DNA of 64,000 nucleotides from Patescibacteria group bacterium (GTDB taxonomy: Bacteria; Patescibacteriota; Patescibacteriia; Patescibacteriales; UBA12075), in the NCBI GenBank assembly GCA_022705905.1, contig JAKJDO010000001.1, positions 28,692-92,691 of the forward strand. Reading direction: 5' to 3'. The notes under the pieces were generated by a model. The model was not told where the DNA came from. It saw nothing but the letters and a program-made list of their open reading frames with translations, and did not search any database. The stretch's first letter is position 1. Every line of letters starts with the position of its first letter. The translations under genes and the position numbers were made by a program. Below, in pieces: positions 2,392 to 62,135 of the stretch.

Positions 2392-2400
2392 AAAAAATTG

Positions 2401-2787: not shown

Positions 2788-2822
2788 GATTTTAACTAAA
2801 TAATTAATAGACGCTCACTTTT

Positions 2823-3254: not shown

Positions 3255-3299
3255 AAAAAGTCACCGAAATTTTTAAAATTTTATGATTGATGGCCTGCT

Positions 3300-3770
3300 C
3301 TACTGGGAGGTCTGGGTGGTGACAGTAGAAGAATCAAAGGAAATAATGCCGGTATCAATAGCGCTAATTATAAAATAACTAATAGCGTAAGCGGCCATAA
3401 CTATTATCAGGCCGATTAAAGAATTAGTTAATATATCTTTTGCTTTTTGAACTTTTTGCTGATCGCCCTTGGCTGTCATCCAAATAAAGCCGGCATAAAC
3501 CATCAAAATAAGAAAAATCACTCCTAAAAAAGAAAGTAAGGTTTGAATAACACTGCCGGAAATTTGAATTAATTTGTTCTCTGCCTGGTCAAGCTGCAAA
3601 GAGTTGTCATACCCCGCTCCGCCGCCAACTTTTTTCAAGCCGTTATTAAACAGGGTGGCGGAATTATCGGCTGCAAAAGACACTGAGGCAATTTGACTCG
3701 TGACAAAAATGCAAAAGAATATAACGGCTATAAATTTTAATTTTATAAATAACCTTTTATTTTTATTCAT
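3300..3770 (-). CDS. VirB2/TrbC-like pilin paralog 4.
   Basis: Conserved core FLGVIFLILMVYAGFIWMTAKGDQQKVQKAKDILTNSLIGLIIVMAAYAI. Confidence 0.6.
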   Translation of the reverse strand: MNKNKRLFIKLKFIAVIFFCIFVTSQIASVSFAADNSATLFNNGLKKVGGGAGYDNSLQLDQAENKLIQISGSVIQTLLSFLGVIFLILMVYAGFIWMTAKGDQQKVQKAKDILTNSLIGLIIVMAAYAISYFIISAIDTGIISFDSSTVTTQTSQ

Positions 3771-3775
3771 GGTGA

Positions 3776-4168
3776 TTAGCTGGTTATAACACTGCCGACA
3801 TAAGCGGTAATAGCATAAGCGGCTATAACTATTATTAAGCCGACAGCTGCGGCTTCCATTATATCTTTAGCCGTTTGCACGTTTTGTTGATTGCCGCGAG
3901 CTAACATCCAGGTAAAGCCGCCATAAATCATTAAAATTAAAAACAAAACGCCGATAAAAGACAGGCCGACGCCTATCGCGTTACCTATGGTCGTTGAGAT
4001 ATCTTTTTCCGGCAAGGTGCCATAAGCTTTTTCTGAAGATTGAGTTAAGCCGCTAAGAGCGCTGTCAACTGCTTTGCCCAGCGCGCTGTCAGCAATGCCA
4101 TAGCAAACAAAAAAAGCCAAAAAAATGGCTAAAAATGCTATCGTCTTTTTATATAAACCATTGCCCAT
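3776..4168 (-). CDS. VirB2/TrbC-like pilin paralog 5.
   Basis: Conserved core FIGVLFLILMIYGGFTWMLARGNQQNVQTAKDIMEAAAVGLIIVIAAYAI. Confidence 0.6.
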   Translation of the reverse strand: MGNGLYKKTIAFLAIFLAFFVCYGIADSALGKAVDSALSGLTQSSEKAYGTLPEKDISTTIGNAIGVGLSFIGVLFLILMIYGGFTWMLARGNQQNVQTAKDIMEAAAVGLIIVIAAYAITAYVGSVITS

Positions 4169-4287
4169 AAATTTTATTGCCTTTTGACGAAATTACTTCC
4201 GCCGCTATTAACACGAATTTTTCTTGCTAATGGCGGCGGACCCCTGAAAACAGGGGCCGCTTTTTATCTGCAATAAATATTCTGCGC

Positions 4288-4680
4288 TTAAGGGGTCGGG
4301 TTGCCAACGATGTTGTAAGCGAAGCCAACAACGATCTGAACGATGGCGTAAGCAGCGATAATGATGACTAAACCGATAATACCGGCGATAATAGTCTTTT
4401 TAGCCGAACCAACTCTGTCTTCATTGCCGCCAGCAGTAAGCCAAAGGAAGCCTCCGTAGAGGATTACGATAACGGCGATAATGCCCAAGAAAGTCATCAA
4501 ATAAGTGACGATATTAACTGCGGCCTCTTTTGGATCGTTGACGCTACTTGGTAAACCGAAATCGGCATCATTTATACCCAAAGGGTCAGTCGCTAGGGCG
4601 GGCAAGGCAACTAAAAGAGCTGGCATAATCATCGCTAATAAAGCCACGGCTGCCAATGCATTTTTAAATGTTTTTTTCAT
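4288..4680 (-). CDS. VirB2/TrbC-like pilin paralog 6.
   Basis: Conserved core FLGIIAVIVILYGGFLWLTAGGNEDRVGSAKKTIIAGIIGLVIIIAAYAIV. It is the closest paralog of gene 7. Confidence 0.6.
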   Translation of the reverse strand: MKKTFKNALAAVALLAMIMPALLVALPALATDPLGINDADFGLPSSVNDPKEAAVNIVTYLMTFLGIIAVIVILYGGFLWLTAGGNEDRVGSAKKTIIAGIIGLVIIIAAYAIVQIVVGFAYNIVGNPTP

Positions 4681-4793
4681 AATTTTTGACCTTTTAAATT
4701 AGTTAATAAATTTGACCTTTTTTTATATATTTATTAAATTTTTGCTATTGATTATTAATATCTAGATATAAACAATGTGTTTGTTTTTTTATT

Positions 4794-5174
4794 TTAGGCG
4801 CCGCTAAGCACGTTCATAGTCGTACTCACGATTATTTGAACTATAGCATAGGCTGAAATAATTATCACGAGTCCGATTAATCCGGCAATAATTGTTTTTT
4901 TGGCATCAGCAATTTTATCTTCATTGCCGCCAGCCACCATCCATTTAAAACCGCCCAGTAAAACTACAACTACGGCGATAATGCCCAAGAAAGTCATCAA
5001 ATACTTAACGGTGTTAACTGCTGCCGCTCGGGGATCACTGACTGAATTAGGCAGGCCTAAACTGCCTGCTTCATTCAATCCTAGATCGGCTTGGGCTTGA
5101 ACAGCTACCGCTAAAGCAGGAAAAATTATTAAAGCTAATGCGAGAGCTAAAAATAAATTAATTTTTTTGATCAT
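4794..5174 (-). CDS. VirB2/TrbC-like pilin paralog 7.
   Basis: Conserved core FLGIIAVVVVLLGGFKWMVAGGNEDKIADAKKTIIAGLIGLVIIISAYAIV. A G-rich RBS (gggaagggggtgagtc) lies just before the ATG. Confidence 0.6.
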   Translation of the reverse strand: MIKKINLFLALALALIIFPALAVAVQAQADLGLNEAGSLGLPNSVSDPRAAAVNTVKYLMTFLGIIAVVVVLLGGFKWMVAGGNEDKIADAKKTIIAGLIGLVIIISAYAIVQIIVSTTMNVLSGA

Positions 5175-14220: not shown

Positions 14221-14346
14221 CTAAAAAACAATTTTTAATGATTGATCTCAAATTTTGAATGAATTTTTAATTTTTGAATGTTTAAAAATTAAATCATTAA
14301 ATTATTCATTAAAAATTTAAAATTAGAAATTAAAAATTATTTTGAA

Positions 14347-16908: not shown

Positions 16909-17034
16909 GTATAAACAAATTTATAATTTCCAATTTTTAAATTTTAAATAATTTCTAATGCTTAATTTTAAAACATTAAAAATTTTAATCTTGTTTAAAA
17001 ATTAAAAATTACAAAATTAAAAATTTTTACCGCT

Positions 17035-19114: not shown

Positions 19115-19217
19115 ATTAATTTATCATTTCGAGTGAAATTTAATGGAGCGAGAAATCTCTTAAACTACAAAGCCAACTTCAAGCTATTTCTCCCTGCGGT
19201 CGGAATGACAATAAAAA

Positions 19218-19952: not shown

Positions 19953-21947
19953 CTAGCGCTGCTTTTTTATCTTTTCGATATTATCCTTAATCAATTTTGT
20001 TTTTATTAAAAATTGTAGATGCTCAATAATCGTTTCTTCGTCTAGCTTCCGTTCTTTAGCAATTTTATTTATAGACAGTCCCCTGCTATACAATTCAAAG
20101 GTTTCCAATTGCGTTAACTTTGTATTAAGCCCAGATTTTTTATCTGACTCTTTTACGACAAATTCCTTTTCTTCTTTGCGTCTATAATAACGTCGATCGT
20201 CTCGATAAAAATCTTTTTTACTCTCTTCTTTGGCGCGGATAGCGTCGCCAGTTAAACAAACATCGCACTTACCGCAATTTTTAGTTTCACGATCGCCAAA
20301 ATATTCTAAAATATATTGCTGGCGACAACCGGTGTGATAAACATAATTTTCCATTTTATCAAGTTTGTGATAGGCGTGCGCCAATTTTTCCTTCAAAGCC
20401 CTAAAATCTATATCCACTTCGCTTAAATCCAATCTTTTTAAAATTCTGATTTCCGTTCCTTTAAAGGGCGGTTTATATTCCATTAAGCCTTTTTCAGCCA
20501 TTGATCTAATTAAACGCATCAACGATTCTTTTTTTATTTCTAAAATTTCGGCCACCTCTTCTAAATTAGCTTGCCAACCATTTTCTAGCTCAGAACTAAA
20601 CCGAGAGTAGAGTTTATGTAACAGGTCTAAACTTTTTTTAGAACGTTTCTGCAATTCTGTTATTACATCAGCAAAATCTTTTTGCAATTTTAGATAGGCG
20701 CTACCTTTTTTTTCATGAGAACGAGCGATCAGACCTTCTTTTTCCAACATCTTTAAGCTAGTACCGACAGCCATCTCCGGCAAGTTGTCGGATAAAATGG
20801 CGGCCAGTTCGGCATAAGTAATTTGTACAATATCCGACTCATAATTTAACAAAGTATTATAAATTTCTAAAATAATTTCCGGGGGCGGATTGTCGCCTTT
20901 AATAAAAAACTCTTGTAAATGCCGGTCGCGCGAATTGTAGAGCAATAAACAAAAACTTGGTTTGCCATCACGTCCTGCCCGACCCGCCTCTTGATAATAA
21001 GCCTCGATTGTACCCGGCATATCATAATGAATGACATAACGGACGTTGGCTTTATCTATGCCTAAGCCAAATGCATTGGTGGCTACAATAACTTTAACTT
21101 TGCCGTGTATAAAATTATCTTGAATCCATTTTCTTTCTTCAGCTTCAATGCCAGCGTGATAGCTAACCGCTTCAATATCATTCTCTAAAAGTACCTGTAA
21201 TAAATTATCAGCTCGAGCTCGAGTGCCAACGTAAATAATACCATGATCATCTGGTGCGCTGGAAATTGCATCAAGTACAAATTGCGGTTTTTTGGTCTCA
21301 TTGGCGTGAATGACACCAAATTGTAAATTATTCCTGGCAAAACCGGTAATTACTAGCTCCGGATTATTTAGGTCTAATTGTTTAATTATATCTTCACGCA
21401 CCTCTGGTGTGGCCGTAGCTGTTAAAGCGATAACTGGTGGATTGCCAACTTGAGCAATAGCTGAACGTAATTTTAAATAGCTAGGACGGAAGTCATGTCC
21501 CCATTGACTAATACAGTGAGCCTCGTCAATCGCAAACAAACTAACCTTAATATCATTAAGCGCGTTTAAAAAATCTAAACTATAAAATCTCTCTGGCGCT
21601 ATATACAATAATTTGTATTTGCCAGCTTTAACACCGTCTAAACGATTAGCAGTTTCGGCTGCGGAGATGGAAGAATTAATAAAAATTGCTGGTATGCCGA
21701 CACGAGATAAACTATCAACTTGATCTTTCATTAAAGATATTAATGGCGACACTACAATAGTCACGCCATCTAAAATTAAAGCCGGCAATTGATAGCAAAG
21801 CGATTTTCCGCCGCCAGTTGGCATAATGACTACTGTTGACTTACCGACTAAAACATTATCGATCGCCTGATCTTGACCTAGGCGAAAACTTTCATAACCG
21901 TAATGCTTTTTTAATATTGTTTTTAATTGTTGCTTTTTACTTTCCAT
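19953..21947 (-). CDS. recQ: ATP-dependent DNA helicase RecQ with a C-terminal Zn-binding, winged-helix and HTH extension.
   Basis: Motif [24 protein letters not shown] box [15 protein letters not shown], and a Cys cluster CGKCDVC. Confidence 0.85.
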
Positions 21948-26090: not shown

Positions 26091-27779
26091 TTATAACAAT
26101 TTTTTAACCATATAACTGTTCTCTAAATCATAACCAAATTTTCTATAATAGTCTCGTACCCCGACCCCGGAAATAACCACCATTTTTTTATAGCCGTTCT
26201 TCTTCGCGATTTTCTCTGCTTCAGACAATAGTTTCCTGCCAAGGCCAGAATGCTGCGTTTTCTTCTTGCTGCCCACAGGCATTAGCTCACCATAAACATG
26301 CAGTTCTCTAATCAGCGCTGTTTTTTTCATCTCGAGCAAAGCGAGAGATCTCTTAGATTCTGTCTCTGACTTTAAGGGATTTCTCTCGTCACTTTGTGAC
26401 GATCGAAATGACAAATTATTTTTTGGCAAACGTAATCGGCAAAAGCCATACAACGTTTTTCCGTCTTTACTATTATAGCTAATGAAATATTCTTCGCCGC
26501 CTGACGCCTTGTAACTTTCAACTTTCAACTTTGCAACTTTTAGCCTCTTCTCTCGCGCCTCTCGGCAGCGAATACATCTACACTCCACACCACGGTCTTT
26601 CATAACCTGGCGTAGATTCGTAATCATATTGCCAGCAATGATTGATTCTGACGGAATGTCGCGTATCAATCTAATTATTCTTACATATTCCGGCGTTACT
26701 TGTTTACATTTTATGATCAGCTCTTCCAGCCTCTTGTTCGCATACGGTTTGTATTCGCCTTGTTTCCACCATTTATATAGCTCACTGCCTTTGGTCACGA
26801 CTGTCGGATAAAATTTAATTTGATCTGGCTGAAACCGTTCATCAGCAAATAACTGCTGATACATTTTAAAGTCTTTAGCTGGCGTTGAACCAGGCAGTCC
26901 TGGCATGATGTGATATGTAACTTTAAAACCGAAATCTTTTAGCAATTTTGTCGCCCGCGTAATGTCGGTTACATTGCTGCCTCGTTTATTTAATTTTAAA
27001 ATTTTATCATCAATAGCTTGCACGCCAATTTCCAAACGCGTACATCCTAATTCCCGCATTTGCCACAATTCTTTCTCGTTTATATAATCCGGTCTAGTTT
27101 CAAGTGTAATCCCTATTATCTTATATTTAGCTTTTTCATTTTTTTTCTGTTCTTTTAACAACTCTCTCTTTAGTTTTTTAATTTTTAGTTTTGAGTTGTA
27201 ATTTTGACTTTTGAATTTTGACTTTTGAATTTTATTAAATTCATTTGCCGCTTCAAAGCATTGCCAAACATACCAATATTTATACTCTCTCGGCAGGTAG
27301 CTCCATGTTCCACCAATAACAATCAATTCAATTTTTGTTGGTTCGTGGCCATTATTAACTAGCGCACGCAAACGATCTTGTACTTGAACGTAAGGATTAA
27401 ACTCGCAACGAATCGCGCGCATAACCGCTGGTTCATTAGACAAATAACTTTGCGGTACATTTTTTTCCGTCGGACAATAAGTGCACTTTCCTGGACAAGG
27501 ATACGGCATAGTTAAAACCGCTACCGGTGCGATACCCGACAAAGTCCTAATACTACGTTTGCGTAAAATCCTCAGTAAATCATTATTAGGCTGCCTTAAT
27601 TGTTTTTTAACCTGATTTTGATAGTATGACAAAATTTCGGAATTAAGAAAAATTTTAATCCCGTACTTTTTAGCAATTTTACGCTTTACCAACATTAAGT
27701 CATTGCGCGTTTTTATCTTCGCTCTTAGCAGCTCTGCAATGGCCCGTTGCTTGTTTTTGGTGTTTTTTGATGATATCAT
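26091..27779 (-). CDS. Elp3-family tRNA uridine(34) acetyltransferase homolog (radical SAM plus C-terminal GNAT).
   Basis: Radical-SAM Cys cluster YPCPGKCTYCP, a C-terminal GNAT region (QHSGLGRKLL), and a length of 562 aa. Confidence 0.7.
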   Translation of the reverse strand: MISSKNTKNKQRAIAELLRAKIKTRNDLMLVKRKIAKKYGIKIFLNSEILSYYQNQVKKQLRQPNNDLLRILRKRSIRTLSGIAPVAVLTMPYPCPGKCTYCPTEKNVPQSYLSNEPAVMRAIRCEFNPYVQVQDRLRALVNNGHEPTKIELIVIGGTWSYLPREYKYWYVWQCFEAANEFNKIQKSKFKSQNYNSKLKIKKLKRELLKEQKKNEKAKYKIIGITLETRPDYINEKELWQMRELGCTRLEIGVQAIDDKILKLNKRGSNVTDITRATKLLKDFGFKVTYHIMPGLPGSTPAKDFKMYQQLFADERFQPDQIKFYPTVVTKGSELYKWWKQGEYKPYANKRLEELIIKCKQVTPEYVRIIRLIRDIPSESIIAGNMITNLRQVMKDRGVECRCIRCREAREKRLKVAKLKVESYKASGGEEYFISYNSKDGKTLYGFCRLRLPKNNLSFRSSQSDERNPLKSETESKRSLALLEMKKTALIRELHVYGELMPVGSKKKTQHSGLGRKLLSEAEKIAKKNGYKKMVVISGVGVRDYYRKFGYDLENSYMVKKLL

Positions 27780-38582: not shown

Positions 38583-41423
38583 TTATTTTAGCTCTCCCCA
38601 ACTATCTCCCGTATTAGCATCAACTACCACCGGCACTTTTAACTTTAACACTTCTTCCATTATCTTTTTAATCTTCTCAGACAATTCCTGTACTTTAGCC
38701 GATTTTATTTCAAAAAGCAATTCGTCGTGTACTTGTAAAATCATTTTTACATCTTCCGTTTTATATTCTTTTTTTATCATCTTCTCAATTTCAATCATGG
38801 CGATCTTTATCATATCCGCAGCTGTGCCTTGCAGCGGTGTGTTGATAGCCATGCGCTCGGCCGCTTTTTTAACCATAACTACTGACGAATTTATTTCCGG
38901 TAAATAACGCCGGCGGCCAAATAGCGTTTCCGAATAACCATTCTCCCGCGCTTCATCCACTACTTCTTCCACCCATTTCTTTATGCCTTGATAGGCTTTA
39001 AAATAATTGGCAATAAATTCACGCGCTCTGTCATAAGAAATGTCAGCCGTCTGCGACAAACCGTGCGGACCTTGACCGTATAAAATACCGAAATTAGTTG
39101 CCTTAGCTTCACGGCGCATTTCTTTCGTAACCTCCTCTAATTTAACGCCGTTAATAGCGGCGGCAGTGGCTATATGAATATCTTCCCCTTTTTTAAAAGC
39201 CTCGATCATTTTCTTATCGCCTGACATATGCGCCGCTAACCGTAACTCAATCTGTGAATAATCTAAACTTAATAATTTACATCCCGAGCAAGCAACAAAA
39301 GCCTTCCGAATTTCATTGCCCAATTCGGTGCGCACCGGAATATTCTGCAAATTCGGTTCGGTTGAAGATAAACGACCAGTCGCCGTAATCGTTTGATTAA
39401 AGCTGGTATGCAAGCGACCATCTTTTTTGCTAATTAAATCCGGCAAGGCATCGGCATAAGTTGAACTTAATTTTGCTAACTCGCGATATTCTTGAACTAG
39501 CCTAATAATCGGATGGGCGTCTTTTAATTTATCTAATTCATCAGCAGCGGTTGAAAATCCGGTTTTATTCTTCCCGATATTTAAAGACGAAATTTCTAAT
39601 TTTTCAAACAAAATTTCGCGTAACTGCTGAGTTGACTTAATGTTAAACTCTATGCCAGCTAATTTATATATTTTTTTCTCTAATGTCTTTATTCTTTTGT
39701 CTATTTCACGGCTTAATTCTACCAAAACATTTTTGTCGAGTAACACGCCTTTGTCTTCCATATCGGCCAGCACCGTCACAAGCGGCATTTCAATTTCATA
39801 AAATAATTTTTCCATTTTCTGTTCGCGCAATTGTTTGCTTAATGCATTTACGAGCCGCCTAGTAAAATCAGCGTCTTCACAGGAATACAAGCTTAACTTC
39901 TCAGCTTCAACTTCGTTAAAATTTTTCTTATCGCGCCCCTTGCCGAGCAAATCTTCTTTTGATATTTTTTCAAAACCTAATTCCGTAAACGTCACGGCGT
40001 CTAAATTATGCTGGCGTGTACCCGGATTTAACAAATAAGAAGCGATCATCGTATCAAAAGCAACGTTAGCTACATTAATGCCGCTGCTTTTCATTACTCG
40101 ATAATCAAACTTAATATTATGACCGTATTTCTCAATCTTGGGATTCTCAAAAATCGACCGTAAATTTTCTAGCCAAGGATGAATTTTATTCTCTTCTTTT
40201 TTGTTAAAATTGAAAAGAGTGTTTTGCTTGTCATCCTGAGCGCTAGCGAAGGATCTCGTTTTTTTCACCACGCTTACAAAATACGCCTCGCCGTCTTTCC
40301 AGGAAAAACTAATACCTAATAAATTTGCAATCAGGGGATCAAAAGAATCAGTTTCTGTGTCAAAAACAAATCTGCTTTGTTTTTTAAGTTTGCTTAAAAA
40401 ATCTAAAAACTTTTTCTCGTCATCGACTAAAATATATTTAAATTCTTTTTTATTCCTCTCAAATTTATCAAAAATCTCTCCTCCTTTCTCTCGCCCCCTC
40501 CCTTTTTGAAAGGGAGGGGCGGGGAGGGTTTTAGCGCTGCCTGAAAACAAACTATGAACGCGCGGCAAAAGCGACTTAAACTCTAAATCGCTAAACAATT
40601 TTACAACTTCTTCTTGCTTGATATTGCCAAACCGAGCATCGTCTAAATTAAACTTAATTTTTACATCACGTTTAATCGTTGCTAAACTTTTTGACATCAA
40701 CGCATCTTTTTTATGCTCTTTCAATAATTCTCTAATTCTATCTTTGATTTTAGCTGAATTAATATTTTTATAAACTCCATCTAAGGTTTTAAATTCAATT
40801 AATAATTCACTCGCGGTTTTCTCGCCAATGCCTTTTACGCCCGGAATATTATCGCTCGGATCGCCGCGCAAAGCCTTATAATCAATCATCTGCTCCGGTT
40901 TTAAACTAAAGCGCGCTTTCACTGTTCTAGCATCATACAAAATACTGTCAGACAAACCACGGCTCATCGTATAAACTTTAGTATTATCATCAACTAACTG
41001 CAAAGTGTCCATATCACCAGTTACAATAATCTTTTCAATATCACCATCAACTCTGGCGGTAATCGTGCCGATTAAATCGTCAGCTTCAAAGCCAGCTTCA
41101 GCAAAAACAGGGATGGCAAAAGCTTCTGCTAATTCTTTAACACGCGGAATTTGCGTATATAAATCATCCGGCGCTTTAACGCGCGTCGCTTTATAATCTT
41201 TATATTCAATATGCCGGAAAGTCGGCCCAGCTTTATCTAAAGTTAAAACAACATAATCAGGCCTAAACTCTTTTAACGCTTTAAGTAAAACAGTCGCAAA
41301 ACCATAAACAGCATTAACCATCTCCCCTTTTTTAGTGGTCATAGTTGGCGGTAAAGCGTGAAAACTGCGATGTATCAGCGCATTTCCGTCAATTATTATC
41401 ATTTTTTCCTTTTTGCTGGTCAT
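38583..41423 (-). CDS. polA: DNA polymerase I (5'-3' exonuclease, 3'-5' exo-like and polymerase domains).
   Basis: N-terminal IIIDGNALIHRSFHA, exo motif FDTETDS, and polymerase motifs (DYSQIELR, QVHDELLFE). Confidence 0.9.
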   Translation of the reverse strand: MTSKKEKMIIIDGNALIHRSFHALPPTMTTKKGEMVNAVYGFATVLLKALKEFRPDYVVLTLDKAGPTFRHIEYKDYKATRVKAPDDLYTQIPRVKELAEAFAIPVFAEAGFEADDLIGTITARVDGDIEKIIVTGDMDTLQLVDDNTKVYTMSRGLSDSILYDARTVKARFSLKPEQMIDYKALRGDPSDNIPGVKGIGEKTASELLIEFKTLDGVYKNINSAKIKDRIRELLKEHKKDALMSKSLATIKRDVKIKFNLDDARFGNIKQEEVVKLFSDLEFKSLLPRVHSLFSGSAKTLPAPPFQKGRGREKGGEIFDKFERNKKEFKYILVDDEKKFLDFLSKLKKQSRFVFDTETDSFDPLIANLLGISFSWKDGEAYFVSVVKKTRSFASAQDDKQNTLFNFNKKEENKIHPWLENLRSIFENPKIEKYGHNIKFDYRVMKSSGINVANVAFDTMIASYLLNPGTRQHNLDAVTFTELGFEKISKEDLLGKGRDKKNFNEVEAEKLSLYSCEDADFTRRLVNALSKQLREQKMEKLFYEIEMPLVTVLADMEDKGVLLDKNVLVELSREIDKRIKTLEKKIYKLAGIEFNIKSTQQLREILFEKLEISSLNIGKNKTGFSTAADELDKLKDAHPIIRLVQEYRELAKLSSTYADALPDLISKKDGRLHTSFNQTITATGRLSSTEPNLQNIPVRTELGNEIRKAFVACSGCKLLSLDYSQIELRLAAHMSGDKKMIEAFKKGEDIHIATAAAINGVKLEEVTKEMRREAKATNFGILYGQGPHGLSQTADISYDRAREFIANYFKAYQGIKKWVEEVVDEARENGYSETLFGRRRYLPEINSSVVMVKKAAERMAINTPLQGTAADMIKIAMIEIEKMIKKEYKTEDVKMILQVHDELLFEIKSAKVQELSEKIKKIMEEVLKLKVPVVVDANTGDSWGELK
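40230..40258. repeat. Solo arm of the GTCATYCTGAGCG...CGAAGRATCTCG repeat family, in-frame inside polA (encodes ..RSFASAQDDK..).
   Basis: Same 29-mer family as 41528-41577, 51801-51866 and 62016-62135. Confidence 0.5.
40476..40535. repeat. G/C-rich palindromic repeat inside polA: cgccccctcccttt-ttga-aagggaggggcggggaggg followed by tttt. It encodes ..LPAPPFQKGRGREKGGE..
   Basis: Hairpin-forming, compositionally aberrant, and the same family as the holA-UTR and yidD-yidC elements. Confidence 0.5.
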
Positions 41424-41437
41424 TGTTTTTTTCTTTT

Positions 41438-41462
41438 GTCATTCCCGCGCAGGCGGAAATCC
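41438..41462. repeat. Hairpin repeat GTCATTCCCGCG-cag-GCGGAAATCC (family of three copies: 41438, 51161, 56478).
   Basis: Near-identical 24-mers with an 8-bp stem attcccgc/gcgggaat, each just upstream of a gene start (polA here). Confidence 0.5.
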
Positions 41463-41527
41463 ATTTCCTTATTCATTCTACTCCTATTACACCACATAAA
41501 AACCCTTAAAACAAGCCCATCCTCTTT

Positions 41528-41577
41528 GTCATTCTGAGCGTCTGCCTTGCCTGGCAGGCGGGTTAGCGAAGAATTTC
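41528..41577. repeat. Solo copy of the GTCATTCTGAGCG..GCGAAGAATTTC repeat with an internal palindrome gccttgcctggcaggc.
   Basis: The family appears in four places in the window. Confidence 0.45.
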
Positions 41578-42678: not shown

Positions 42679-42918
42679 TTATATAAGATGTTTTTTGGTA
42701 AAAGCGTAGCCTGAGCTTGATTTTAAATATTTTTCAAAACTATATGCCTTTTGTTTTTCAACAAAAGCAGAATACCAAACCAGAATATATGGTCGTTTTA
42801 TATTTGAATATCTGGTTTTTCCAGAATTGTGTTCATGTATTCTCCGCTTTAAATCAGATGTCGCCCCTATATATCGGCTACGATCTTTTTCGCTTTGAAG
42901 AATATAAACGTAATACAT
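42679..42918 (-). CDS. GIY-YIG nuclease-family small protein (YhbQ/UPF0213-like).
   Basis: MYYVYILQSEKDRSRYIGATSDLKRRIHEHN is a GIY-x10-YIG motif. It is a paralog of the 50700-51017 gene. Confidence 0.65.
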   Translation of the reverse strand: MYYVYILQSEKDRSRYIGATSDLKRRIHEHNSGKTRYSNIKRPYILVWYSAFVEKQKAYSFEKYLKSSSGYAFTKKHLI

Positions 42919-43035
42919 AACTTTGTTGCCCCACTCCGCTAGGCTTCGCGGGGCACCACTTCACTTTTTGATATAACTATTTTATTTTTATATGTGCGTG
43001 CACCGCGTAGCTTGGAGTAAAAGCGACAAGCGAAG

Positions 43036-43111
43036 TGGTGGACCGTACCGGGATCGAACCGGTCACCTCCTGCGTGCAAAGCAGGCACTCTACCAGATGA
43101 GCTAACGGCCC
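43036..43111 (-). tRNA. tRNA-Ala (anticodon TGC), CCA encoded.
   Basis: Manual fold. Acceptor GGGCCGT/ACGGTCC, anticodon loop TTTGCAC, T-loop GGTTCGATCC. Confidence 0.8.
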
Positions 43112-43481: not shown

Positions 43482-44834
43482 TTACTTTATATAGTTTAAC
43501 GGATTATATTTTGTTCCGTTAATAATAACTTCAAAATGAAGATGCGAACCAGTAGACCAGCCGGTTGATCCCATGGCTGCGATTGCTTGTCCTTTAGTAA
43601 CGGCCTCTCCTTTCTCTACATAAAATTTTGATAAATGGGCGTATCTGGTTTTTTTGCCACCGCCATGGTTAATGACTATCTGATTGCCATAGCCGGACCC
43701 CCAGCCCTCAATTTCAACTGTGCCCGAGTCGGCGGCATAAATCGGCGTGCCCAATGGTCCGGCAATATCAAGGCCGGTATGACGCCAAGAAAAATATTGC
43801 GTGATTTTTCTAACACCTGCCGGCCAATTCATCTTGTTGCCGGAAACAGGAGCAGCTCCCGGATCCTTAACTAAATCAACAATCGTAGAAATGCCGGTGT
43901 AACGGGTTGGCTGCGCAACCGGAGTCGATATTTTTTTACCGCCAGGAATAAATAATTTGTCGCCTACTGCCAATTTAGAACCATCTGCAATTTTATTGGC
44001 TTCAATAATTTTATTTTCTTCAATGTCATATTTTTTAGCGATGCTAGCCAGAGTGTCGCCCTTAGCCACTTGATGATTAAGACCGCTCATCGGCAAAATT
44101 CTCAATTTATCACCCGGCCTAATCAAACTATAAACGCTCAAATTATTCTCCCATAAAATCGTGCTGACGCTAATCTCAAATTTTTCCGCAATTGTGCTAA
44201 TAGTGTCGCCTTTCTCAACAACGTAAGTTGTCGTTTCTGTGCGCGGCCGCTTAGAGATCTTGGTCGTAGCAATATCCGGCTTAACCATAGAACCCCCTTC
44301 TTGAATGGTTTTTATCTCACCGCCCTCTTCTTCTCCGCTCATGCTAGCGGTTGTTTGCGGGCGAAAAGCGCTTAAATTGTCTAGATACGATTGTTGAATA
44401 GCGGAAATAGTTTGTTCTTGATTAAAAGTCTCAACAATAAGCTGTTGGTCATCATAACCAGGGGCGTTAAATTCATTGCTGATTAAATCAGCCAGTATTG
44501 TCCGCGCAGGATTAATCGGCATATTCTCGGCACTGGTTCGATAAGATAAATTTATAAAAAGAAGCAAGGCTGTCATGCTGACCACTAATATATGGACAAA
44601 TTTTTGTTTAAATAAAAAAACTACCGGATTATGCCTAGCTCTCTGCCAGCCCAATTTTTTAATTATAAAAAAATACCAACCATATATTCGCACAATCACT
44701 TTGTAAAAAATTATCCGTAAAATGAAACGTAATGGTAAAAAAATAATATACGTGAAGACGAATGCTAATACTTTCTTTAATAAAAGCAAAAAGCTAATCA
44801 AAACTAACAGTAGGGAAACGGCAAAATTTATCAA
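43482..44834 (-). CDS. M23-family peptidoglycan endopeptidase with an N-terminal TM segment and two LysM domains.
   Basis: LysM motifs (YVVEKGDTISTIAEKF, HQVAKGDTLASIAKKY) and the M23 catalytic region (HTGLDIAG..., GSTGWSTGSHLHFE). Confidence 0.8.
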   Translation of the reverse strand: MINFAVSLLLVLISFLLLLKKVLAFVFTYIIFLPLRFILRIIFYKVIVRIYGWYFFIIKKLGWQRARHNPVVFLFKQKFVHILVVSMTALLLFINLSYRTSAENMPINPARTILADLISNEFNAPGYDDQQLIVETFNQEQTISAIQQSYLDNLSAFRPQTTASMSGEEEGGEIKTIQEGGSMVKPDIATTKISKRPRTETTTYVVEKGDTISTIAEKFEISVSTILWENNLSVYSLIRPGDKLRILPMSGLNHQVAKGDTLASIAKKYDIEENKIIEANKIADGSKLAVGDKLFIPGGKKISTPVAQPTRYTGISTIVDLVKDPGAAPVSGNKMNWPAGVRKITQYFSWRHTGLDIAGPLGTPIYAADSGTVEIEGWGSGYGNQIVINHGGGKKTRYAHLSKFYVEKGEAVTKGQAIAAMGSTGWSTGSHLHFEVIINGTKYNPLNYIK

Positions 44835-50149: not shown

Positions 50150-50707
50150 TTAATCGTTACGATTGAATAACACCATATTATATCTTCCACCCTGTTTTGT
50201 CAAGTCCTGCTCAACGCCCAAATTCAAACCCTCTCTGGTCTGTAAATGTTTTACAAAATCTCTGATTGTTTCAGCGCCCTTCTCTGGAAATTGCTTTTCG
50301 CGCCCTTTAAGCATCAGCTCTATCTTCAATTTATCGCCTCTTTTTAAAAATTTCTCTGCCTGCTCAGCGCGCATTTCTGAATCATGCTGGCTAATTCTAA
50401 CTGACAGTCTAACGCATTTTAATTCCACTTTTTTCTGCTGAACTTTCTGCTTATGCGCCTTCTTTTCCTGCTCGTATTTAAATTGACCGTAATCCATTAT
50501 CTTAACCACCGGACATTCGCCTTTAGGATTAACTTCAACTAGATCCGATTCTGCTTCACGCGCCATTGCTAATGCTTCTTGAATACTAATCCGACCTCGA
50601 TTTTCTCCATTTTCATCAATCAGAAAAACCTCGGGTACACGAATTTGTTCGTTGACCCTAAATCGTTTTTCTTCGGTTGGTTTCGCTTTTTTCCAAGTTC
50701 TACGCAT
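50150..50707 (-). CDS. infC: Translation initiation factor IF-3.
   Basis: INEQIRVPEVFLIDENGE.. and the infC-rpmI-rplT gene order. Confidence 0.85.
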   Translation of the reverse strand: MRRTWKKAKPTEEKRFRVNEQIRVPEVFLIDENGENRGRISIQEALAMAREAESDLVEVNPKGECPVVKIMDYGQFKYEQEKKAHKQKVQQKKVELKCVRLSVRISQHDSEMRAEQAEKFLKRGDKLKIELMLKGREKQFPEKGAETIRDFVKHLQTREGLNLGVEQDLTKQGGRYNMVLFNRND

Positions 50708-51017
50708 AAAATGAGTGGCTACCCGCCAATTGGGCGGGCTCTCGACCTTGGCAAGGTCGCCCTTTAACTAAAGTGTTATTTAAAATCTTTTGGAGATCTT
50801 CTCTGCCGTGTCCAGTCTTAAAAAATCTTTCTCTTTTTCTTGCATCAATCTCATCTATAAACGCTTCGGCAAATATCAATTTGAACAATCTTCTATTTCT
50901 AGTAGATTCATTCGCTCCGTCGTTATGTTTTTTAATTCTTTCATCTAAATTTTCTGTGTAACCAATATATAATTTTTTATCTTTCAAACTTCTTAAGATG
51001 TAAACGTAATAAAACAT
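50700..51017 (-). CDS. GIY-YIG nuclease-family small protein. Its C-terminal tail reads through a tRNA-Gly-derived repeat.
   Basis: MFYYVYILRSLKDKKLYIGYTENLDERIKKHN motif. The gene is wedged between tRNA-Gly and infC. Confidence 0.6.
   Translation of the reverse strand: MFYYVYILRSLKDKKLYIGYTENLDERIKKHNDGANESTRNRRLFKLIFAEAFIDEIDARKRERFFKTGHGREDLQKILNNTLVKGRPCQGREPAQLAGSHSFYA
50739..50760. repeat. 22-nt exact duplicate of the tRNA-Gly anticodon-arm region (ctctcgaccttggcaaggtcgc; tRNA copy at 51061-51082) plus an adjacent pseudo-T-arm (cccgcc-aattg-ggcggg).
   Basis: Exact match seen in the sequence. It lies at the distal end of the GIY-YIG gene. Confidence 0.55.
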
Positions 51018-51032
51018 CTTTTTTATATTTCA

Positions 51033-51107
51033 TGGAGCGGGTAACGGGAATTGAACCCGTCTCTCGACCTTGGCAAGGTCGCATAATAGCCACTATACGA
51101 TACCCGC
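51033..51107 (-). tRNA. tRNA-Gly (anticodon GCC), CCA encoded.
   Basis: Manual fold. Acceptor GCGGGTA/TACCCGC, anticodon stem CGACC/GGTCG with loop TTGCCAA, T-loop GGTTCAATTCC. Confidence 0.8.
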
Positions 51108-51160
51108 CTACGTTCTGCTTCGACAGAACTCCGGCGGGGCAAGTCCGCCAGTTTTTCCGT

Positions 51161-51185
51161 GTCATTCCCGCGAAAGCGGGAATCC
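51161..51185. repeat. Hairpin repeat GTCATTCCCGCG-aaa-GCGGGAATCC (family copy 2).
   Basis: Perfect 8-bp stem with a GAAA loop. A GC hairpin ggcgg-ggcaagt-ccgcc plus T-run precedes it at 51132-51155. Confidence 0.5.
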
Positions 51186-51323
51186 AGAAAATTGTAGGAA
51201 ATAAAATTCTATACGAAAAAAGTTAAGAAATCAAAGATTCTTAACAATAATTATTATAGAGTAAAACTATTTTTTTGGCAAGGGCTTGAAAATAAGATAA
51301 AATTATGTTATAGTCCGAAAGAT

Positions 51324-51794
51324 ATGTCAGCCTTAGCAGTCAACAAAAGAGCCAATTTTGATTATGAAATAACCGACAAACATGAAGCCGGCATCGTTCT
51401 TTTTGGCCATGAAGCCAAATCAATCAAAACCGGGCACATCAGCCTAAAAGGGGCTTTTGTTACCGTAAAAAATACAACCAAAAACCTGCCGGAATTATAT
51501 CTGATCAACGCGCACATACCTCTTTATGCTAAAGCTAGCACTGTCAAATCATATGATCCTACGCGACCCAGAAAATTACTCCTGCACAAAAATGAAATAA
51601 ACAAATTAATTGGCAAGAAACAAGAACAAGGATTAACCTTGGTGCCGATCAAAATTTATTCTAAGCACAGTTTGATAAAACTAGAATTCGGTGTCGGCCG
51701 TGGCAAAAAAAAGTTCGACAAAAGAGAGGTGATAAAAAAACGCGAGGTTGATAAACAAATTAGAACTTTGACAAAAACGAAAGCAAGAAAATAA
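51324..51794 (+). CDS. smpB: SsrA-binding protein.
   Basis: MSALAVNKRANFDYEI..GIVLFGHEAKSIK. The gene is followed by tmRNA. Confidence 0.85.
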   Translation: MSALAVNKRANFDYEITDKHEAGIVLFGHEAKSIKTGHISLKGAFVTVKNTTKNLPELYLINAHIPLYAKASTVKSYDPTRPRKLLLHKNEINKLIGKKQEQGLTLVPIKIYSKHSLIKLEFGVGRGKKKFDKREVIKKREVDKQIRTLTKTKARK

Positions 51795-51800
51795 CCTACT

Positions 51801-51866
51801 GTCATCCTGAACGAAGTGAAGGATCTCGCAATTAAAAACAAGATTCTTCGCTTTGCTCAGAATGAC
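51801..51866. repeat. MITE-like inverted-repeat element. Arm gtcatcctgaacgaagtgaaggatctcg, 12-nt spacer, inverted arm agattcttcgctttgctcagaatgac. It lies between smpB and ssrA.
   Basis: The two arms are imperfect reverse complements and belong to the GTCATYCTGAGCG family. Confidence 0.5.
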
Positions 51867-51874
51867 AAAAATAC

Positions 51875-52254
51875 GGGGATGATAGGATTCGATAATAATG
51901 CCATCTAAAAACATTCGGAACGTGCCTGACACCACGCAAATCTGTCAAAAACAATAAGTGCAAAAAACTTATTAGCAAAAGCTATGGACGCTTTCCGCGC
52001 ACCAGCTTTCGCTCCTGTTCTTGCCTAAAAACGCAAGAGCCATCCGTCCAGTCAGGCCTGATAGCTGGTCACGGGTGTCATAACATCGGGCTTAGTTTAT
52101 AAAGACGTTCTGATTTATAGACAAAATTAAAGAACTAGCTATTATCGGTTTTGTTTAGTTTTCTACGTTAGTGGTTAAATTCCAAACTAAACTATTTCCG
52201 TAAATATGTTTTCTAGATTATTATTAGACGCGGGTTCAACTCCCGCCATCTCCA
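51875..52254 (+). ncRNA. ssrA: tmRNA (ssrA).
   Basis: 5' GGGGATGATAGGATTCGA and 3' GACGCGGGTTCAACTCCCGCCATCTCCA form the tRNA-like domain. An internal tag ORF (..AKAMDAFRAPAFAPVLA*) spans about 51975-52026. The gene is immediately downstream of smpB. Confidence 0.85.
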
Positions 52255-52270
52255 CTCGGTTTTAAAAAAG

Positions 52271-55231: not shown

Positions 55232-56488
55232 TTATTCTTGGACTTCAGCTTCTGGCTCTGGCGTTACTTCTTCTACGACCGGCTTCTTTTCTTCCGCTTC
55301 TTCAGCTTCCACTTTTTTACTTTTTTCGTCTTCGGTTTTTTCAACAATATCAATTTTCCAACCAGTCAATTTTGCCGCCAATCTCGCGTTTTGTCCGCCT
55401 TTGCCGATCGCTAAAGATAATTGCTCGGAAGACACTATCACAATCGCTTTCTTTTCCGCTTCATCTATTTCAATATTAATAATTTTAGCAGGCGATAAAG
55501 AGTTGCTAATATATTTGACAGGATCTTCATCGTAAGCAATAATGTCAACTTTCTCTCCGCCTAGTTCCTGGATGATCGTTTGGATGCGCGCGCCTCTTTG
55601 TCCCACACAAGAGCCGATCGGATCGACGTTGTCGGAATCGGTCCAAACTGCGACTTTTGAACGCGAACCAGCCTCTCGAGCCACACCTTTTATTTCTATT
55701 AAACCGTTGGAAATTTCCGGAATTTCCAGATAAAAAACTTTCTTTAAAATTTCATCCGAAGTTCTGGACAAAACAATCTCCGGTCCCTTAGTTTTTGAAC
55801 TTACTTCTTTAACAAAAACCTTGATGCGATCTCCGGTATTGTATCGCTCGCCTGGAATTTGCTCGTCAGGCGGCAAAACACCGACTGACTTGCCTAGGTC
55901 AACTAAAACGACCCTGCCTTCGCGTCTTTGCACAACACCGCTAACAACTTCATGCTCTTTGTCTTTAAAATCGGCAAATACCATTTCTCTTTCCGCTTCT
56001 CGCAGTCTCTGAATAATAACTTGCTTGGCGGTTTGAGCAGCCATACGACCATAAGACTCAGGTACTTCTAACTTCGTTTTTATTTCATCGCCGATTTTAG
56101 CTGTTTTTTTAATTAACTTGGCCTCAGTAATTTGCACTTCAGTTTTAGGGTTAAACCTTCTTTTTTCTTCTTCACCTTCTGCGCCCTCAGCTGAAGCCGT
56201 CTCGTTAGTTACAGCCGCTATCTCTTCCTCACCCTCTTCAATTATTTCTTCTTCTGGCATATCTTCAACCACAGTTTTTACGTCGTAAACTTTTGATTTG
56301 CCGGTCTCTGGATCAAACTCCACTTTAATATTTTGATTTTTTTTGCCGTAGTCCTTGCGATAAGCAGCGGCTAAAGCTGATTCAACTGTTTCAATAACGG
56401 CTTCGTAGCTTAGCCCCTTTTCTTCGCAAATTTGTCTAATAGCTTTTAATATTTCTGACATAATTTTATATTCTAGTGTCATTCCCAC
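55232..56488 (-). CDS. nusA: Transcription termination/antitermination factor NusA with an acidic insert.
   Basis: N-terminal domain (MSEILKAIRQICEEKGL), S1 and two KH domains. Confidence 0.85.
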   Translation of the reverse strand: MGMTLEYKIMSEILKAIRQICEEKGLSYEAVIETVESALAAAYRKDYGKKNQNIKVEFDPETGKSKVYDVKTVVEDMPEEEIIEEGEEEIAAVTNETASAEGAEGEEEKRRFNPKTEVQITEAKLIKKTAKIGDEIKTKLEVPESYGRMAAQTAKQVIIQRLREAEREMVFADFKDKEHEVVSGVVQRREGRVVLVDLGKSVGVLPPDEQIPGERYNTGDRIKVFVKEVSSKTKGPEIVLSRTSDEILKKVFYLEIPEISNGLIEIKGVAREAGSRSKVAVWTDSDNVDPIGSCVGQRGARIQTIIQELGGEKVDIIAYDEDPVKYISNSLSPAKIINIEIDEAEKKAIVIVSSEQLSLAIGKGGQNARLAAKLTGWKIDIVEKTEDEKSKKVEAEEAEEKKPVVEEVTPEPEAEVQE

Positions 56489-56501
56489 GCAAGCGGGAAT
56501 C
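56478..56501. repeat. Hairpin repeat GTCATTCCCACG-caa-GCGGGAATC (family copy 3), overlapping the nusA start region.
   Basis: Same family as 41438 and 51161. Confidence 0.5.
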
Positions 56502-56844
56502 TAAATTAATGAAAAAGGCTAGTTTATCTATTGATAACTAGCCTGAATGCCTCTTTATAATATCACGTCCCTGACTACTTGTCAAATTTAAAACAATATG
56601 ATAGCATTTACTTTGATAGTCAGAGACGACTATTTCTTTTTTTCAAGTCGGTTTTTCTATAAAATTTTAGCTGAGCGGCAGTCTTGTCTGGCTGCAATCC
56701 CACTGGAGATGAAGAATGGTTAGTTTAATTAACTGCCCTCAAAAACTTGCCAGGCTCGTCTTGCGTGTCGTGCGGGAAACGCCGCCCTGTCAAGGTCTAC
56801 AAATAAATTTATAAAATACACCTAATTAATAAAACCTTCAGCGC

Positions 56845-56919
56845 GGAGTGGTAGTTCAGTTTGGTTAGAACGCCGCCCTGTCACGGCGGAGGTCGCGGGT
56901 TCGAGCCCCGTCCACTCCG
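56845..56919 (+). tRNA. tRNA-Asp (anticodon GTC), flanked by an extended inverted repeat (ccttcagcgc...gcgctgaagg) and followed by a T-run.
   Basis: Manual fold. Acceptor GGAGTGG/CCACTCC, anticodon stem CCGCC/GGCGG with loop CTGTCAC, T-loop GGTTCGAGCCC. Confidence 0.8.
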
Positions 56920-57275
56920 CGCTGAAGGTTTTTTATTTTGGCGAGTCACGGTGGTAAGGATCTGTCTCGTTTGCCCGCCCAAAGCCGCAAGTATTTGCGA
57001 CGAGAGTAGTCTGCTCCATAAATGATAAAATGGTCTCAATAAAAAAACCTTTTTTGTTTTAATGGAGATCTTAATCAAAAGATGTTAAAATAAAAACAAA
57101 GTTAATTTAAAAAACATGCTACTAATAATAATCCTAATCATTTTTATCCTGATGGCTGGCGCTGCAATTTATCTTGGCGCTAAAGAAGACGAGAAAAAGA
57201 AAAAATAATTTTCAAAAAGACGACATAAAAAAACAACCTCAGAATTTTAAGGCTGTTTTTTTTATTAAAAATTTA

Positions 57276-58414: not shown

Positions 58415-59767
58415 CTAATTGTTGTTATATAAAAGCTGTTTAATAGACTCTATGTCTTGCTTGATGCGCTCGTTGTCGTCCGCTTCTTTCGTAATTTTGT
58501 TAAAGGCATGCATGGCAGTAGTGTGGTCGCGACCGCCAATTTCCTGGCCAATGGTCGGATAAGACGTGTTGGTCTCTTTGCGCATTAAAAACATAATAAT
58601 CTGCCGCGGATAAACCAGCTCTTTTTTACGGCACTTGCCAGTCAAGTCCTTGGTTTCAACATCAAAATATTTAGAAACAGACTCAATAATGTCTTTGCCG
58701 GTAATTGACTTGGTTTTAGTTGAGGTGATGATGCTGCCTAAGACGCTCTTGGAAGAATCAATAGTTGGCTTGGTGTTGTTAAATTCATGAAAAGCAATTA
58801 ACCGGTTCAGCGCCCCCTCCAGCTCGCGAATGTTGCTTTGAATATTGTTGGCAATATAATACAAAATTTCCGGGTCTAAAGAATAATTTTTTTCGCGGCA
58901 TTTAGCTTCTAATATTGCCATTCTGGTTTCAATGTCTGGCTGGGCAATGTCAACAATCATGCCCCACTCAAATCTAGACAACAGCCTTTTTTCTAAAGCT
59001 GGAATGGATTTAGGCGGGCGATCACAAGTCAAAACAATTTGTTTATTAGTTTGGTGAAGTTCGTTAAAAGTATGAAAAAATTCTTCCTGGGTGCCGTCTT
59101 TACCGGCCATAAACTGAATATCGTCTATCAGCAACAAATCAACGTTACGATAAAGGTCTTTGAATTCTTTGGCCTTGCCATTTTTTACTGAATGAATATA
59201 ATCGTTGGTAAAACGTTCACAGGTGATATATAAAATTTTATTGGTTCTTTTTGAAATTTCATGACCCACGGCTTGCAACAGGTGTGTCTTGCCCAGACCC
59301 ACGCCGCCATAAATAAACAAGGGGTTATAAGCATTGCCCGGATTGGCGGCCACTGCCTGGCTGGCGGCGTGCGCCAATTCGTTGCCTTTGCCGACAATAA
59401 AGCTTTCAAAATTATAGCGGGCGTTCAAGCCAAACTGATTAATGGAAACGGGTTCGCTACTCGCTTCTTCTTTTTTTATTTTTATTTTTTTAAGCAAATC
59501 ATCCATCGGGCTGTTTCTTCTGGTTTCAACTTTATAAAATATCTGCTTAACCGTCTTGGTGCTGACACTCTGGATTGCGCCAGAAATTTGCTGATGATAC
59601 TTTTTTTCCAACCAAGCCTTAGTAAAGGTGTTGGGCACACAAATGACAACCTTTTCGTCTTCAAACGAAGAAATAAAAGTGTTTTTAAACCAGGTGGTGA
59701 AATTTGCCTTGGATAAATTAAGTTCTATTTCGCCAAGCACCGCCTGCCAAAGTTGATCGTGATTCAT
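58415..59767 (-). CDS. dnaA: Chromosomal replication initiator DnaA.
   Basis: Walker A GGVGLGKTHLL, sensor motifs, and a C-terminal DNA-binding domain. Confidence 0.9.
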   Translation of the reverse strand: MNHDQLWQAVLGEIELNLSKANFTTWFKNTFISSFEDEKVVICVPNTFTKAWLEKKYHQQISGAIQSVSTKTVKQIFYKVETRRNSPMDDLLKKIKIKKEEASSEPVSINQFGLNARYNFESFIVGKGNELAHAASQAVAANPGNAYNPLFIYGGVGLGKTHLLQAVGHEISKRTNKILYITCERFTNDYIHSVKNGKAKEFKDLYRNVDLLLIDDIQFMAGKDGTQEEFFHTFNELHQTNKQIVLTCDRPPKSIPALEKRLLSRFEWGMIVDIAQPDIETRMAILEAKCREKNYSLDPEILYYIANNIQSNIRELEGALNRLIAFHEFNNTKPTIDSSKSVLGSIITSTKTKSITGKDIIESVSKYFDVETKDLTGKCRKKELVYPRQIIMFLMRKETNTSYPTIGQEIGGRDHTTAMHAFNKITKEADDNERIKQDIESIKQLLYNNN

Positions 59768-62015: not shown

Positions 62016-62135
62016 ATGTCATCCTGAGGCTGTAGGCCGAAGGATCTCGGGTGTCTTGCAAGTTGTTCGTGTTTGCAAAACAACCAGAGATTCTTCGCTG
62101 CCTGCCTGCCGGCCGGCAGGCGCTCAGAATGACAT
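62016..62135. repeat. MITE-like inverted-repeat element of 120 bp. The arms are atgtcatcctgagg..gccgaaggatctcggg and cagagattcttcgc..gctcagaatgacat, each with an inner palindrome. Its right end overlaps the murI ATG.
   Basis: The arms are reverse complements of each other and belong to the GTCATYCTGAGCG family. The central part contains ttgcaa palindromes. Confidence 0.5.

Follow-up and report, generated by a model that had tools for sequence, protein, structure and literature searches.

Hairpin repeats of a Patescibacteria group bacterium as probable relatives of the Ssn-related motifs

The stretch of Patescibacteria group bacterium DNA analysed here (64,000 nucleotides, hereafter the window) contains a family of short hairpin repeats, with 12 arms distributed over nine sites, that can probably be classified with the Ssn-related motifs (SRMs). 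We put the probability of this reading, in which the repeats are REP-like, non-coding and non-autonomous and their arms are single-stranded DNA substrates of an Ssn-like nuclease supplied in trans, at roughly 0.75. Motifs of the SRM kind are already known; what is new here is the host phylum and a widespread subtype, type 1, that is missed by the published search pattern. The initial annotation had described four copies of a MITE-like family at gene boundaries, and its gene context (smpB, ssrA, polA and murI) is correct. All four copies exist where it placed them, including the inverted pair between smpB and ssrA and the solo arms at 41527-41577 and within polA, but they are only part of the family.

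The 12 arms, six of them solo, were collected by a head search and pattern searches and can be written in a common frame, TGTCAT(Y)C – variable GC hairpin – G(R)ATC(TC). Six arms belong to type 1, which comprises the arms of the initial annotation (GTCATYCTGAGCG…CGAAGRATCTC). The pattern GTCATYCTGAR-N4-34-GAAGRATC has five matches in the window against 0.00 in 100 shuffles, and the sixth type-1 arm (41527) carries the tail TTTC in place of ATC-TC. One type-1 pair fills the spacer between the smpB stop (51794; gene 51324..51794) and the tmRNA start (51875; gene 51875..52255), which at 80 nt consists of 12 nt and the 68-nt pair. Its left arm (TGTCATCCTGAACGAAGTGAAGGATCTC, 51800..51827, plus strand) has its own stem, ATCCT/AGGAT, and its right arm (TGTCATTCTGAGCAAAGCGAAGAATCTT, 51840..51867, minus strand) stops 7 nt short of the 5' end of the tmRNA. 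The second type-1 pair, upstream of murI, consists of a left arm that matches the pattern (62017..62048, plus strand) and a right arm whose distal stem contains a GC palindrome of 22 nt (62087..62134, minus strand), and ends 12 nt before the true murI ATG at 62146. This copy had been described as overlapping the murI start codon and forcing a spurious N-terminal extension; the extension is indeed spurious, but the pair meets only a mechanical, TTG-started ORF. The two remaining type-1 arms are solo and associated with polA (38583..41423): one, with an inner GC hairpin, lies 104 nt upstream of the polA start (41527..41577, plus strand), and the other lies in frame within the gene (40229..40257, plus strand), where it is translated as RSFASAQDDKQ and forms part of a loop in the 3'-5' exonuclease domain. 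Type-3 arms occur at two sites, one in frame in an ELP3-like radical SAM gene (TGTCATTTCGA-TCGTCACAAAGTGACGA-GAGAAATC, 26378..26413, minus strand; peptide LSFRSSQSDERNP) and one in a degenerate head-out pair (19121..19210, minus strand), whose other arm is decayed and which separates a methyltransferase gene from a zincin-like gene.

The three other arms resemble a known motif. The Neisseria Transformation Sequence (NTS), CGTCATTCCCGCGMAVGCGGGAATCYRG, is 28 nt long and includes the older dRS3 repeat; a degenerate SRM has also been defined, with the search sequence HGTCWYN(0-2)YYVSBRHN(0-5)WNVSBRGN(0-2)RNCYNB, and Rickettsia is among the SRM-rich genera (Chenal et al., Nat Commun 2025, PMC11893778). 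The NTS-type arms of the window have the form TGTCATTCCCGCGAAAGCGGGAATCC and are located 53 nt upstream of tRNA-Gly (51160..51187), 14 nt upstream of the polA ATG (41437..41464) and 15 nt upstream of the nusA ATG (56477..56504), all on the plus strand. At 51160, 27 of the 28 positions of the arm agree with the Neisseria NTS consensus, within the one mismatch that the original authors allow (PMC11893778), and the other two have three mismatches each; shuffled sequences gave 0 matches. Type-1 arms do not match the NTS consensus. The published SRM pattern matches the arm at 51160 as its sole arm in the window and none of the six type-1 arms, a failure that reflects the narrowness of the pattern, since it also misses the type-1 arms flanking the Ssn gene of Planktothrix (see below). 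The window arms have in common with NTS and SRM the GTC head, the ATTC/GAAT basal stem, the C after the stem and a dispersal as singlets and inverted doublets in intergenic DNA. They differ from the published system in their patescibacterial host, in the presence of three subtypes together and in the two arms that lie in frame in essential genes. The nuclease of that system, SsnA, is a single-domain GIY-YIG protein of about 94 aa that binds the hairpin solely as single-stranded DNA, acts on neither double-stranded DNA nor RNA and cuts a few bases upstream of the hairpin; binding depends critically on the C 3' of the stem, and cutting on the three bases that lead into the stem (PMC11893778).

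In each window arm, the 5' head, (T)GTC, is fixed and is followed by a basal stem in which AT(Y)C pairs with G(R)AT; a C stands immediately after the stem on its 3' side, and the distal stem-loop varies freely provided that pairing is kept. Head, basal stem and tail recur in all subtypes, and at one locus outside the window (L143) a type-1-like and an NTS-type arm form a hybrid pair. The GTC head lies 5' of the stem in all clear arms, the exception being the decayed partner in the 19121 pair (ATC), and the C lies 3' of it in all arms except this partner and the arm at 41527, which has a T there. The inner part of type 1, in which CTGA…GAAG encloses a short hairpin resembling GCGNAGC or, alternatively, a long GC palindrome, sets it apart from the published SRM. 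The oligonucleotide d(GCGAAGC) is a well-known DNA mini-hairpin of unusual stability, a property that fits a function of type-1 arms at the level of single-stranded DNA. Long imperfect hairpins with nested GC palindromes, as first described, are borne out by folding the pairs as DNA (smpB-ssrA pair, 68 nt, -13.5 kcal/mol, z = -4.4; murI-upstream pair, 118 nt, -35 kcal/mol, z = -6.7), the palindromes being located in the distal part of single arms. The hairpin of the arm at 51160 has -9.0 kcal/mol (z = -4.0); with nearest-neighbour DNA parameters, short arms fold no better than shuffles (z from -0.1 to +0.6).

Covariation shows where the pairing lies. In 163 distinct type-1 arms, taken from the matches listed for at least 120 viral-contig loci, position 6 and its partner are T-A in 91, C-G in 65, C-A in 5 and T-G in 2, which amounts to Watson-Crick pairing in 156 of the 163 listed. 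This covariation is genuine because the search pattern permitted all four combinations, and the distal stems of these arms also display compensating changes. In both type-1 pairs of the window the left arm has C..G and the right arm T..A at this position, such that each arm pairs perfectly with itself and the hairpin between the arms contains a C·A mismatch; a pair on a Calothrix plasmid has the same self-paired arms and the same mismatch. Among the type-1 viral-contig matches listed, neighbouring arms have a head-out arrangement 18 times, against three tail-out and three tandem cases. Pairing within the arm is thus under selection, and the unit is the single arm rather than the pair, with arms occurring alone or as head-out inverted doublets. 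This anatomy is REP/REPIN-like and unlike that of a transposon with terminal inverted repeats.

The family is far from unique to the window, so that the condition under which the initial annotation would have been refuted does not hold. The type-1 pattern occurs at no fewer than 120 viral-contig loci and on plasmids of Planktothrix, Calothrix and Phocaeicola, and comparison with relatives, as proposed in the initial annotation, reveals arms that are polymorphic at smpB-ssrA and at polA. The smpB-ssrA spacer measures 41, 15 and 8 nt in three relatives with SmpB identities of 84%, 80% and 75%, respectively, and contains no arm in any of the three; seven contigs with an identical SmpB are 99.9-100% identical and uninformative on polymorphism. 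All three polA-associated arms are missing from the closest relative (L128/L129, 84% PolA identity) and from a second one (L130). A third relative (L131, 80% PolA identity) has a full type-3 pair at the exact site of the solo NTS-type arm at 41437 and a decayed in-frame copy at the site of the coding arm in polA. With these sites empty in close relatives, the suggestion of a small selfish or mobile element holds. Target-site duplications are absent both from the smpB-ssrA pair (flanks CCTAC|…|AAAATAC) and from the murI-upstream pair (flanks TTTTA|…|TGCTA); arms are therefore gained or lost between close relatives without them.

These observations bear on the MITE-like label. A classical MITE would be a deletion derivative of an IS, with terminal inverted repeats, that is mobilised by a DDE transposase in trans and produces a target-site duplication. 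Although the two inverted pairs, 68 and 118 nt long with a variable centre, and the presence/absence polymorphism among relatives are of the kind expected of such an element, the missing duplications in the flanks of both pairs, the solo state of half the arms (solo arms being as common as pairs), the complementarity and covariation inside each arm and the mismatch between the arms of both pairs all argue against it. Furthermore, no transposase is encoded by the window ORFs, none is recurrent near the 120 other loci listed, and arms flank GIY-YIG genes rather than IS elements. We consider a MITE in the strict sense most improbable.

The smpB-ssrA spacers of two other Patescibacteria (L216, 247 nt; L223, 163 nt) contain other GC-rich palindromic repeats, which suggests that this spacer is a recurrent landing site of small elements. 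In-frame arms are tolerated in protein loops. The PolA loop around residues 385-420 of the 3'-5' exonuclease domain (about 40160-40270 in the window) is hypervariable across Patescibacteria (homologs P0037-P0079), with repeated occurrence of peptides typical of translated small repeats (RSFA..DDKQ, LPAQAG, SPPRRDPARAG) and low-complexity runs (KSKVKSQKSKVKS, EVRSKKLEVRS). Rickettsia palindromic elements (RPEs) are lineage-specific repeats of about 100-150 bp that occur in frame in coding genes and are tolerated in surface loops. The arms resemble RPEs as small palindromic repeats inserted in frame, but they are 27-51 nt long with a head and tail common across phyla, whereas RPEs are longer and lineage-bound.

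The association of the arms with Ssn-clade genes in other genomes points to the enzyme that may be involved. The query was an Ssn consensus, and the resulting ORF was then checked by its NTS-rich flanks. The consensus had a single match in an N. gonorrhoeae chromosome filed among plasmids, and the 16 copies of NTS within 1.5 kb either side identify this ORF as the ssnA ortholog. Two N. gonorrhoeae chromosomes and one Aeromonas caviae chromosome sit among the PLSDB plasmids (NZ_CP119140.1, NZ_CP119142.1 and NZ_AP026896.1) and constitute a trap for plasmid statistics. Flanking GTC-hairpin-C arms, most of them in head-out pairs, also accompany the Ssn-clade genes of Aeromonas, Azospirillum, Rhizobium, Spirosoma and three viral contigs; the flanking arms are NTS-like in Neisseria, Aeromonas, Azospirillum and viral contigs, and sister arm types are found in Proteobacteria and Bacteroidota. 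Type-1 arms near-identical to those of the window (for example, GTCATTCTGAGTGAAACGAAGAATCTC) flank all four cyanobacterial Ssn-clade loci fetched, from Planktothrix, Anabaena, a Lyngbya-like mat contig and Coleofasciculus. On the Planktothrix agardhii plasmid, two head-out type-1 pairs lie upstream of the Ssn gene and one downstream, and the published SRM pattern matches none of these arms. Type 1 is thus a form of SRM beyond the published pattern. Around a Novosphingobium homolog, the head is of a variant form on both sides, and flanking arms are absent from the locus of a distant homolog in Subdoligranulum; in total, arms flank the GIY-YIG gene in 12 of the 13 Ssn-clade loci examined. Ssn proteins of three phyla are 46-55% identical among themselves. 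A search with the Planktothrix Ssn protein, WP_083616022.1, returned cyanobacterial neighbours only, a result that says nothing about Patescibacteria.

The Planktothrix agardhii Ssn gene (L295, NZ_LR882964.1, 12856-25113) is located inside a DISARM island, between an MmeI-type restriction-modification gene and drmA. Type-1 arms also occur within the MmeI gene at this locus, and several of the arms have stacked truncated heads, with two or three TGTCATTCTGAG before one tail.

The position of arms around the GIY-YIG gene also bears on a second alternative, in which the repeats are REPs or REPINs mobilised by a RAYT (an HUH tyrosine transposase of the IS200/IS605 type) and not by a GIY-YIG nuclease. 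REPs are short imperfect palindromes with a tetranucleotide head, GTAG, that occur as singlets and head-out doublets without target duplication; they and the RAYT transposases were reportedly described by Nunvar in 2010 and by Bertels and Rainey in 2011. The window arms have the same anatomy of a 5' head beside an imperfect palindrome, the same singlets and head-out doublets, mostly intergenic and without target duplication, and presumably the same dependence on a single-copy enzyme gene acting in trans. An analogy to REP elements was drawn by the Ssn authors themselves (PMC11893778). However, the head is GTC instead of GTAG, no Y1-transposase domain was found in the window ORFs or in the clustered ORFs near the 120 type-1 loci listed, and in the 12 of 13 loci above it is a GIY-YIG gene that holds the position that RAYT genes hold relative to REPs. 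The enzyme family associated with the arms is GIY-YIG in place of HUH-Y1, and mobilisation by a RAYT appears very improbable.

By analogy with the Neisseria work, we infer a mechanism that operates on DNA. An arm that becomes single-stranded, during DNA uptake, replication or repair, would fold, and its hairpin would be recognised as a substrate by an Ssn-like nuclease acting in trans; the repair or copying initiated by that nuclease could then spread the arm. The putative nuclease may be encoded by an Ssn-clade gene outside the 64-kb window or by the tRNA-linked GIY-YIG genes inside it (see below). In Neisseria, SsnA reduces the integration of incoming DNA that bears the motif (PMC11893778). 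Patescibacteria are thought to depend on DNA uptake, and a system that cuts single-stranded DNA at marked sites as it enters the cell would be relevant to their handling of foreign DNA.

The repeats extend the Ssn/NTS system of 2025 to the candidate phyla radiation and add to it the very widespread hairpin subtype GTCATYCTGAGCGNAGCGAAGRATCTC, known from Cyanobacteria, Patescibacteria, plasmids of Bacteroidota and numerous contigs labelled as viral. Since the published pattern misses this subtype, current motif counts are underestimates. The arms also explain an annotation nuisance, namely spurious ORFs and N-terminal extensions, and account for odd peptides in conserved proteins, such as RSFASAQDDK and the peptide of the radical SAM gene.

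The placement of the arms at gene boundaries could alternatively reflect hairpins that act as RNA, in the form of a leader, a processing structure or a terminator, rather than mobility at the DNA level. In the window, every solo arm turns its ATGACA end towards a start codon or RNA 5' end located shortly downstream. For solo and paired arms together, ATGACA ends are found 7-15 nt ahead of the start codons of polA, nusA, murI and the zincin-like gene and of the 5' end of the tmRNA, in each case on the sense strand. The smpB-ssrA pair must also be transcribed if a promoter is common to both genes, no promoter being called in the spacer. The orientation bias in the window is, however, confounded with replication direction. 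The window (G+C 37%) spans the replication origin region, with dnaA (58415..59767) and dnaN on the minus strand and rnpA, yidD, yidC and murI on the plus strand; the GC skew, negative from position 1 onward, reverses sign at about 60 kb, and left of this point the plus strand is therefore the lagging-strand sequence, on which all the sites that show the bias lie, left of oriC. Among the matches listed, 127 solo arms on other contigs show no consistent orientation towards the starts or the ends of genes. The terminator or promoter role that had been suggested for the repeats receives no support at the smpB-ssrA pair, where neither was called, and no T-run follows the hairpins. Two arms are translated, relatives lack arms at the same sites, and SsnA does not bind the RNA form of its motif (PMC11893778). 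No Rfam family matched the arms; at gathering and permissive thresholds, the only Rfam matches were the tmRNA, tRNAs and sub-threshold, miRNA-like hairpin noise. We regard an RNA-level explanation of the family as improbable, and RNA-level side effects could exist alongside the proposed action on single-stranded DNA. A hammerhead-like reading of GUC…CUGA…GAA was rejected because of a misfit in the core and the absence of an Rfam match.

No Ssn-clade ORF was found in the 64-kb window by tblastn, which distinguishes it from the published SRM-Ssn loci. The window represents 6% of the genome, and an Ssn-clade gene may therefore lie elsewhere. The window does encode two small single-domain GIY-YIG proteins of about 80-105 aa, which match PF01541 at E of about 1e-16: GIY1 (42679..42918, minus strand), directly downstream of tRNA-Ala, and GIY2 (50700..51017, minus strand), directly downstream of tRNA-Gly. 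In their clade, Y6, Y17, R27, H31 and E63 are invariant, close to Y6, Y17 and E64 of SsnA, the catalytic Tyr, Tyr and Glu that were mutated in the Nm protein (PMC11893778). The GIY2 model has a GIY-YIG fold (pLDDT 88.8), and a fold search of the PDB with this model returned only UPF0213, Slx1 and I-TevI. The best match among solved structures is BH0048 (sequence E 6e-8; Foldseek E 5e-5), and tblastn against plasmids gave B. subtilis yazA as the lone match. The UPF0213 proteins (BH0048, YazA and YhbQ) are, like the window proteins, small single-domain GIY-YIG proteins and are about as distant from them as the Ssn clade is. Identity to Ssn proteins is 31-40% over 65-80 aa, and the Ssn C-terminal block, REKQLKxW…NPxWxDL, is missing from the window proteins. 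Membership of the Ssn family has been defined either by a BLASTP match to Neisseria SsnA with E below 1e-10 and a query cover of 75% or more, or by cd10448 as top hit (PMC11893778). GIY1 matches the N. gonorrhoeae ortholog at E 1e-11 with only 64 of 94 residues covered, and GIY2 matches it at E 8e-7, which places both outside the BLAST definition, on coverage or on E-value. Both are best described as relatives of Ssn outside the Ssn clade and, judged from their sequences, as candidate nucleases.

Arms are scarce around homologs of these genes. In 80 GTDB loci (L133-L212, mostly Patescibacteria) that contain 96 homologs, 39 arm matches were found against 12 in a reversed-sequence control, with no type-1 match and one SRM match. 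Genuine arms lie within 200 nt of the gene at L136 and L143 only, among the 96 homologous genes; three of the six arm matches near GIY-YIG homologs were dropped as false positives within tRNA-Ser genes. In the window, the NTS-type arm at 51160 is 143 nt upstream of GIY2, with tRNA-Gly between them. Conversely, no GIY-YIG ORF was detected by HMM and motif regex in 1.13 Mb around the 120 type-1 viral-contig loci listed, a result that is uninformative because a trans-acting single-copy gene would give the same one. Clustering of ORFs around these 120 listed loci yielded phage structural genes only and no common enzyme.

The GIY-YIG homologs are linked to tRNA genes. A tRNA or tmRNA gene lies within 300 nt of 68 of the 96 homologs, on the same strand in all 68 cases, tRNA-Ser being the most frequent, and both window copies come after a tRNA gene (42679-43111, Ala; 50700-51107, Gly). 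As far as known, this neighbourhood is unlike that of UPF0213 and Ssn genes, and no description of it for the small GIY-YIG clade was found in the literature searched. Partial copies of the neighbouring tRNA frequently enclose the GIY-YIG ORFs. The C-terminal tail of the GIY2 ORF is an exact 21-22 nt repeat of the tRNA-Gly anticodon arm (50736-50757 versus 51061-51082). At L143 (2852-3253), the GIY-YIG ORF is preceded by the initial 24 nt of tRNA-His and followed by the complete tRNA, and an exact tRNA copy of at least 14 nt was found beyond the ORF in 12 of 63 cases, compared with 3 of 63 in a control stretch. The GIY-YIG ORF with its partial tRNA duplicate has the appearance of a cassette that inserts into tRNA genes and regenerates them. 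Phage T4 SegB, which is located in a tRNA cluster, offers a parallel. It is conceivable, though doubtful, that the three arm subtypes exist without an Ssn-clade nuclease and that the tRNA-linked GIY-YIG protein, as a mobile cassette restoring tRNA genes by partial duplication, is its counterpart in the candidate phyla.

Several other features of the window deserve mention. A tRNA-Asp gene (56831-56932) is located inside a perfect 21-bp inverted repeat, in which the acceptor stem is extended by 14 bp and followed by a T-run; as RNA, this region folds at -57 kcal/mol (z = -7.3), and the repeat may be a combined processing stem and terminator. Seven paralogous genes in tandem (1861-5174) encode proteins of 126-176 aa, every one of which has a match to PF18895, a family of type IV secretion system pilins. 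In a RecQ-like helicase (19953-21947), about 190 residues separate Helicase_C (end 328) from the RecQ zinc-binding domain (start 519), a stretch much longer than expected that suggests an inserted segment. Finally, three AT-rich inverted repeats in intergenic DNA (14225-14343, 16914-17028 and 44587-44688), with AAAATT-like arms of 34-40 nt that are 34-39 nt apart, may represent a separate repeat family or terminators.
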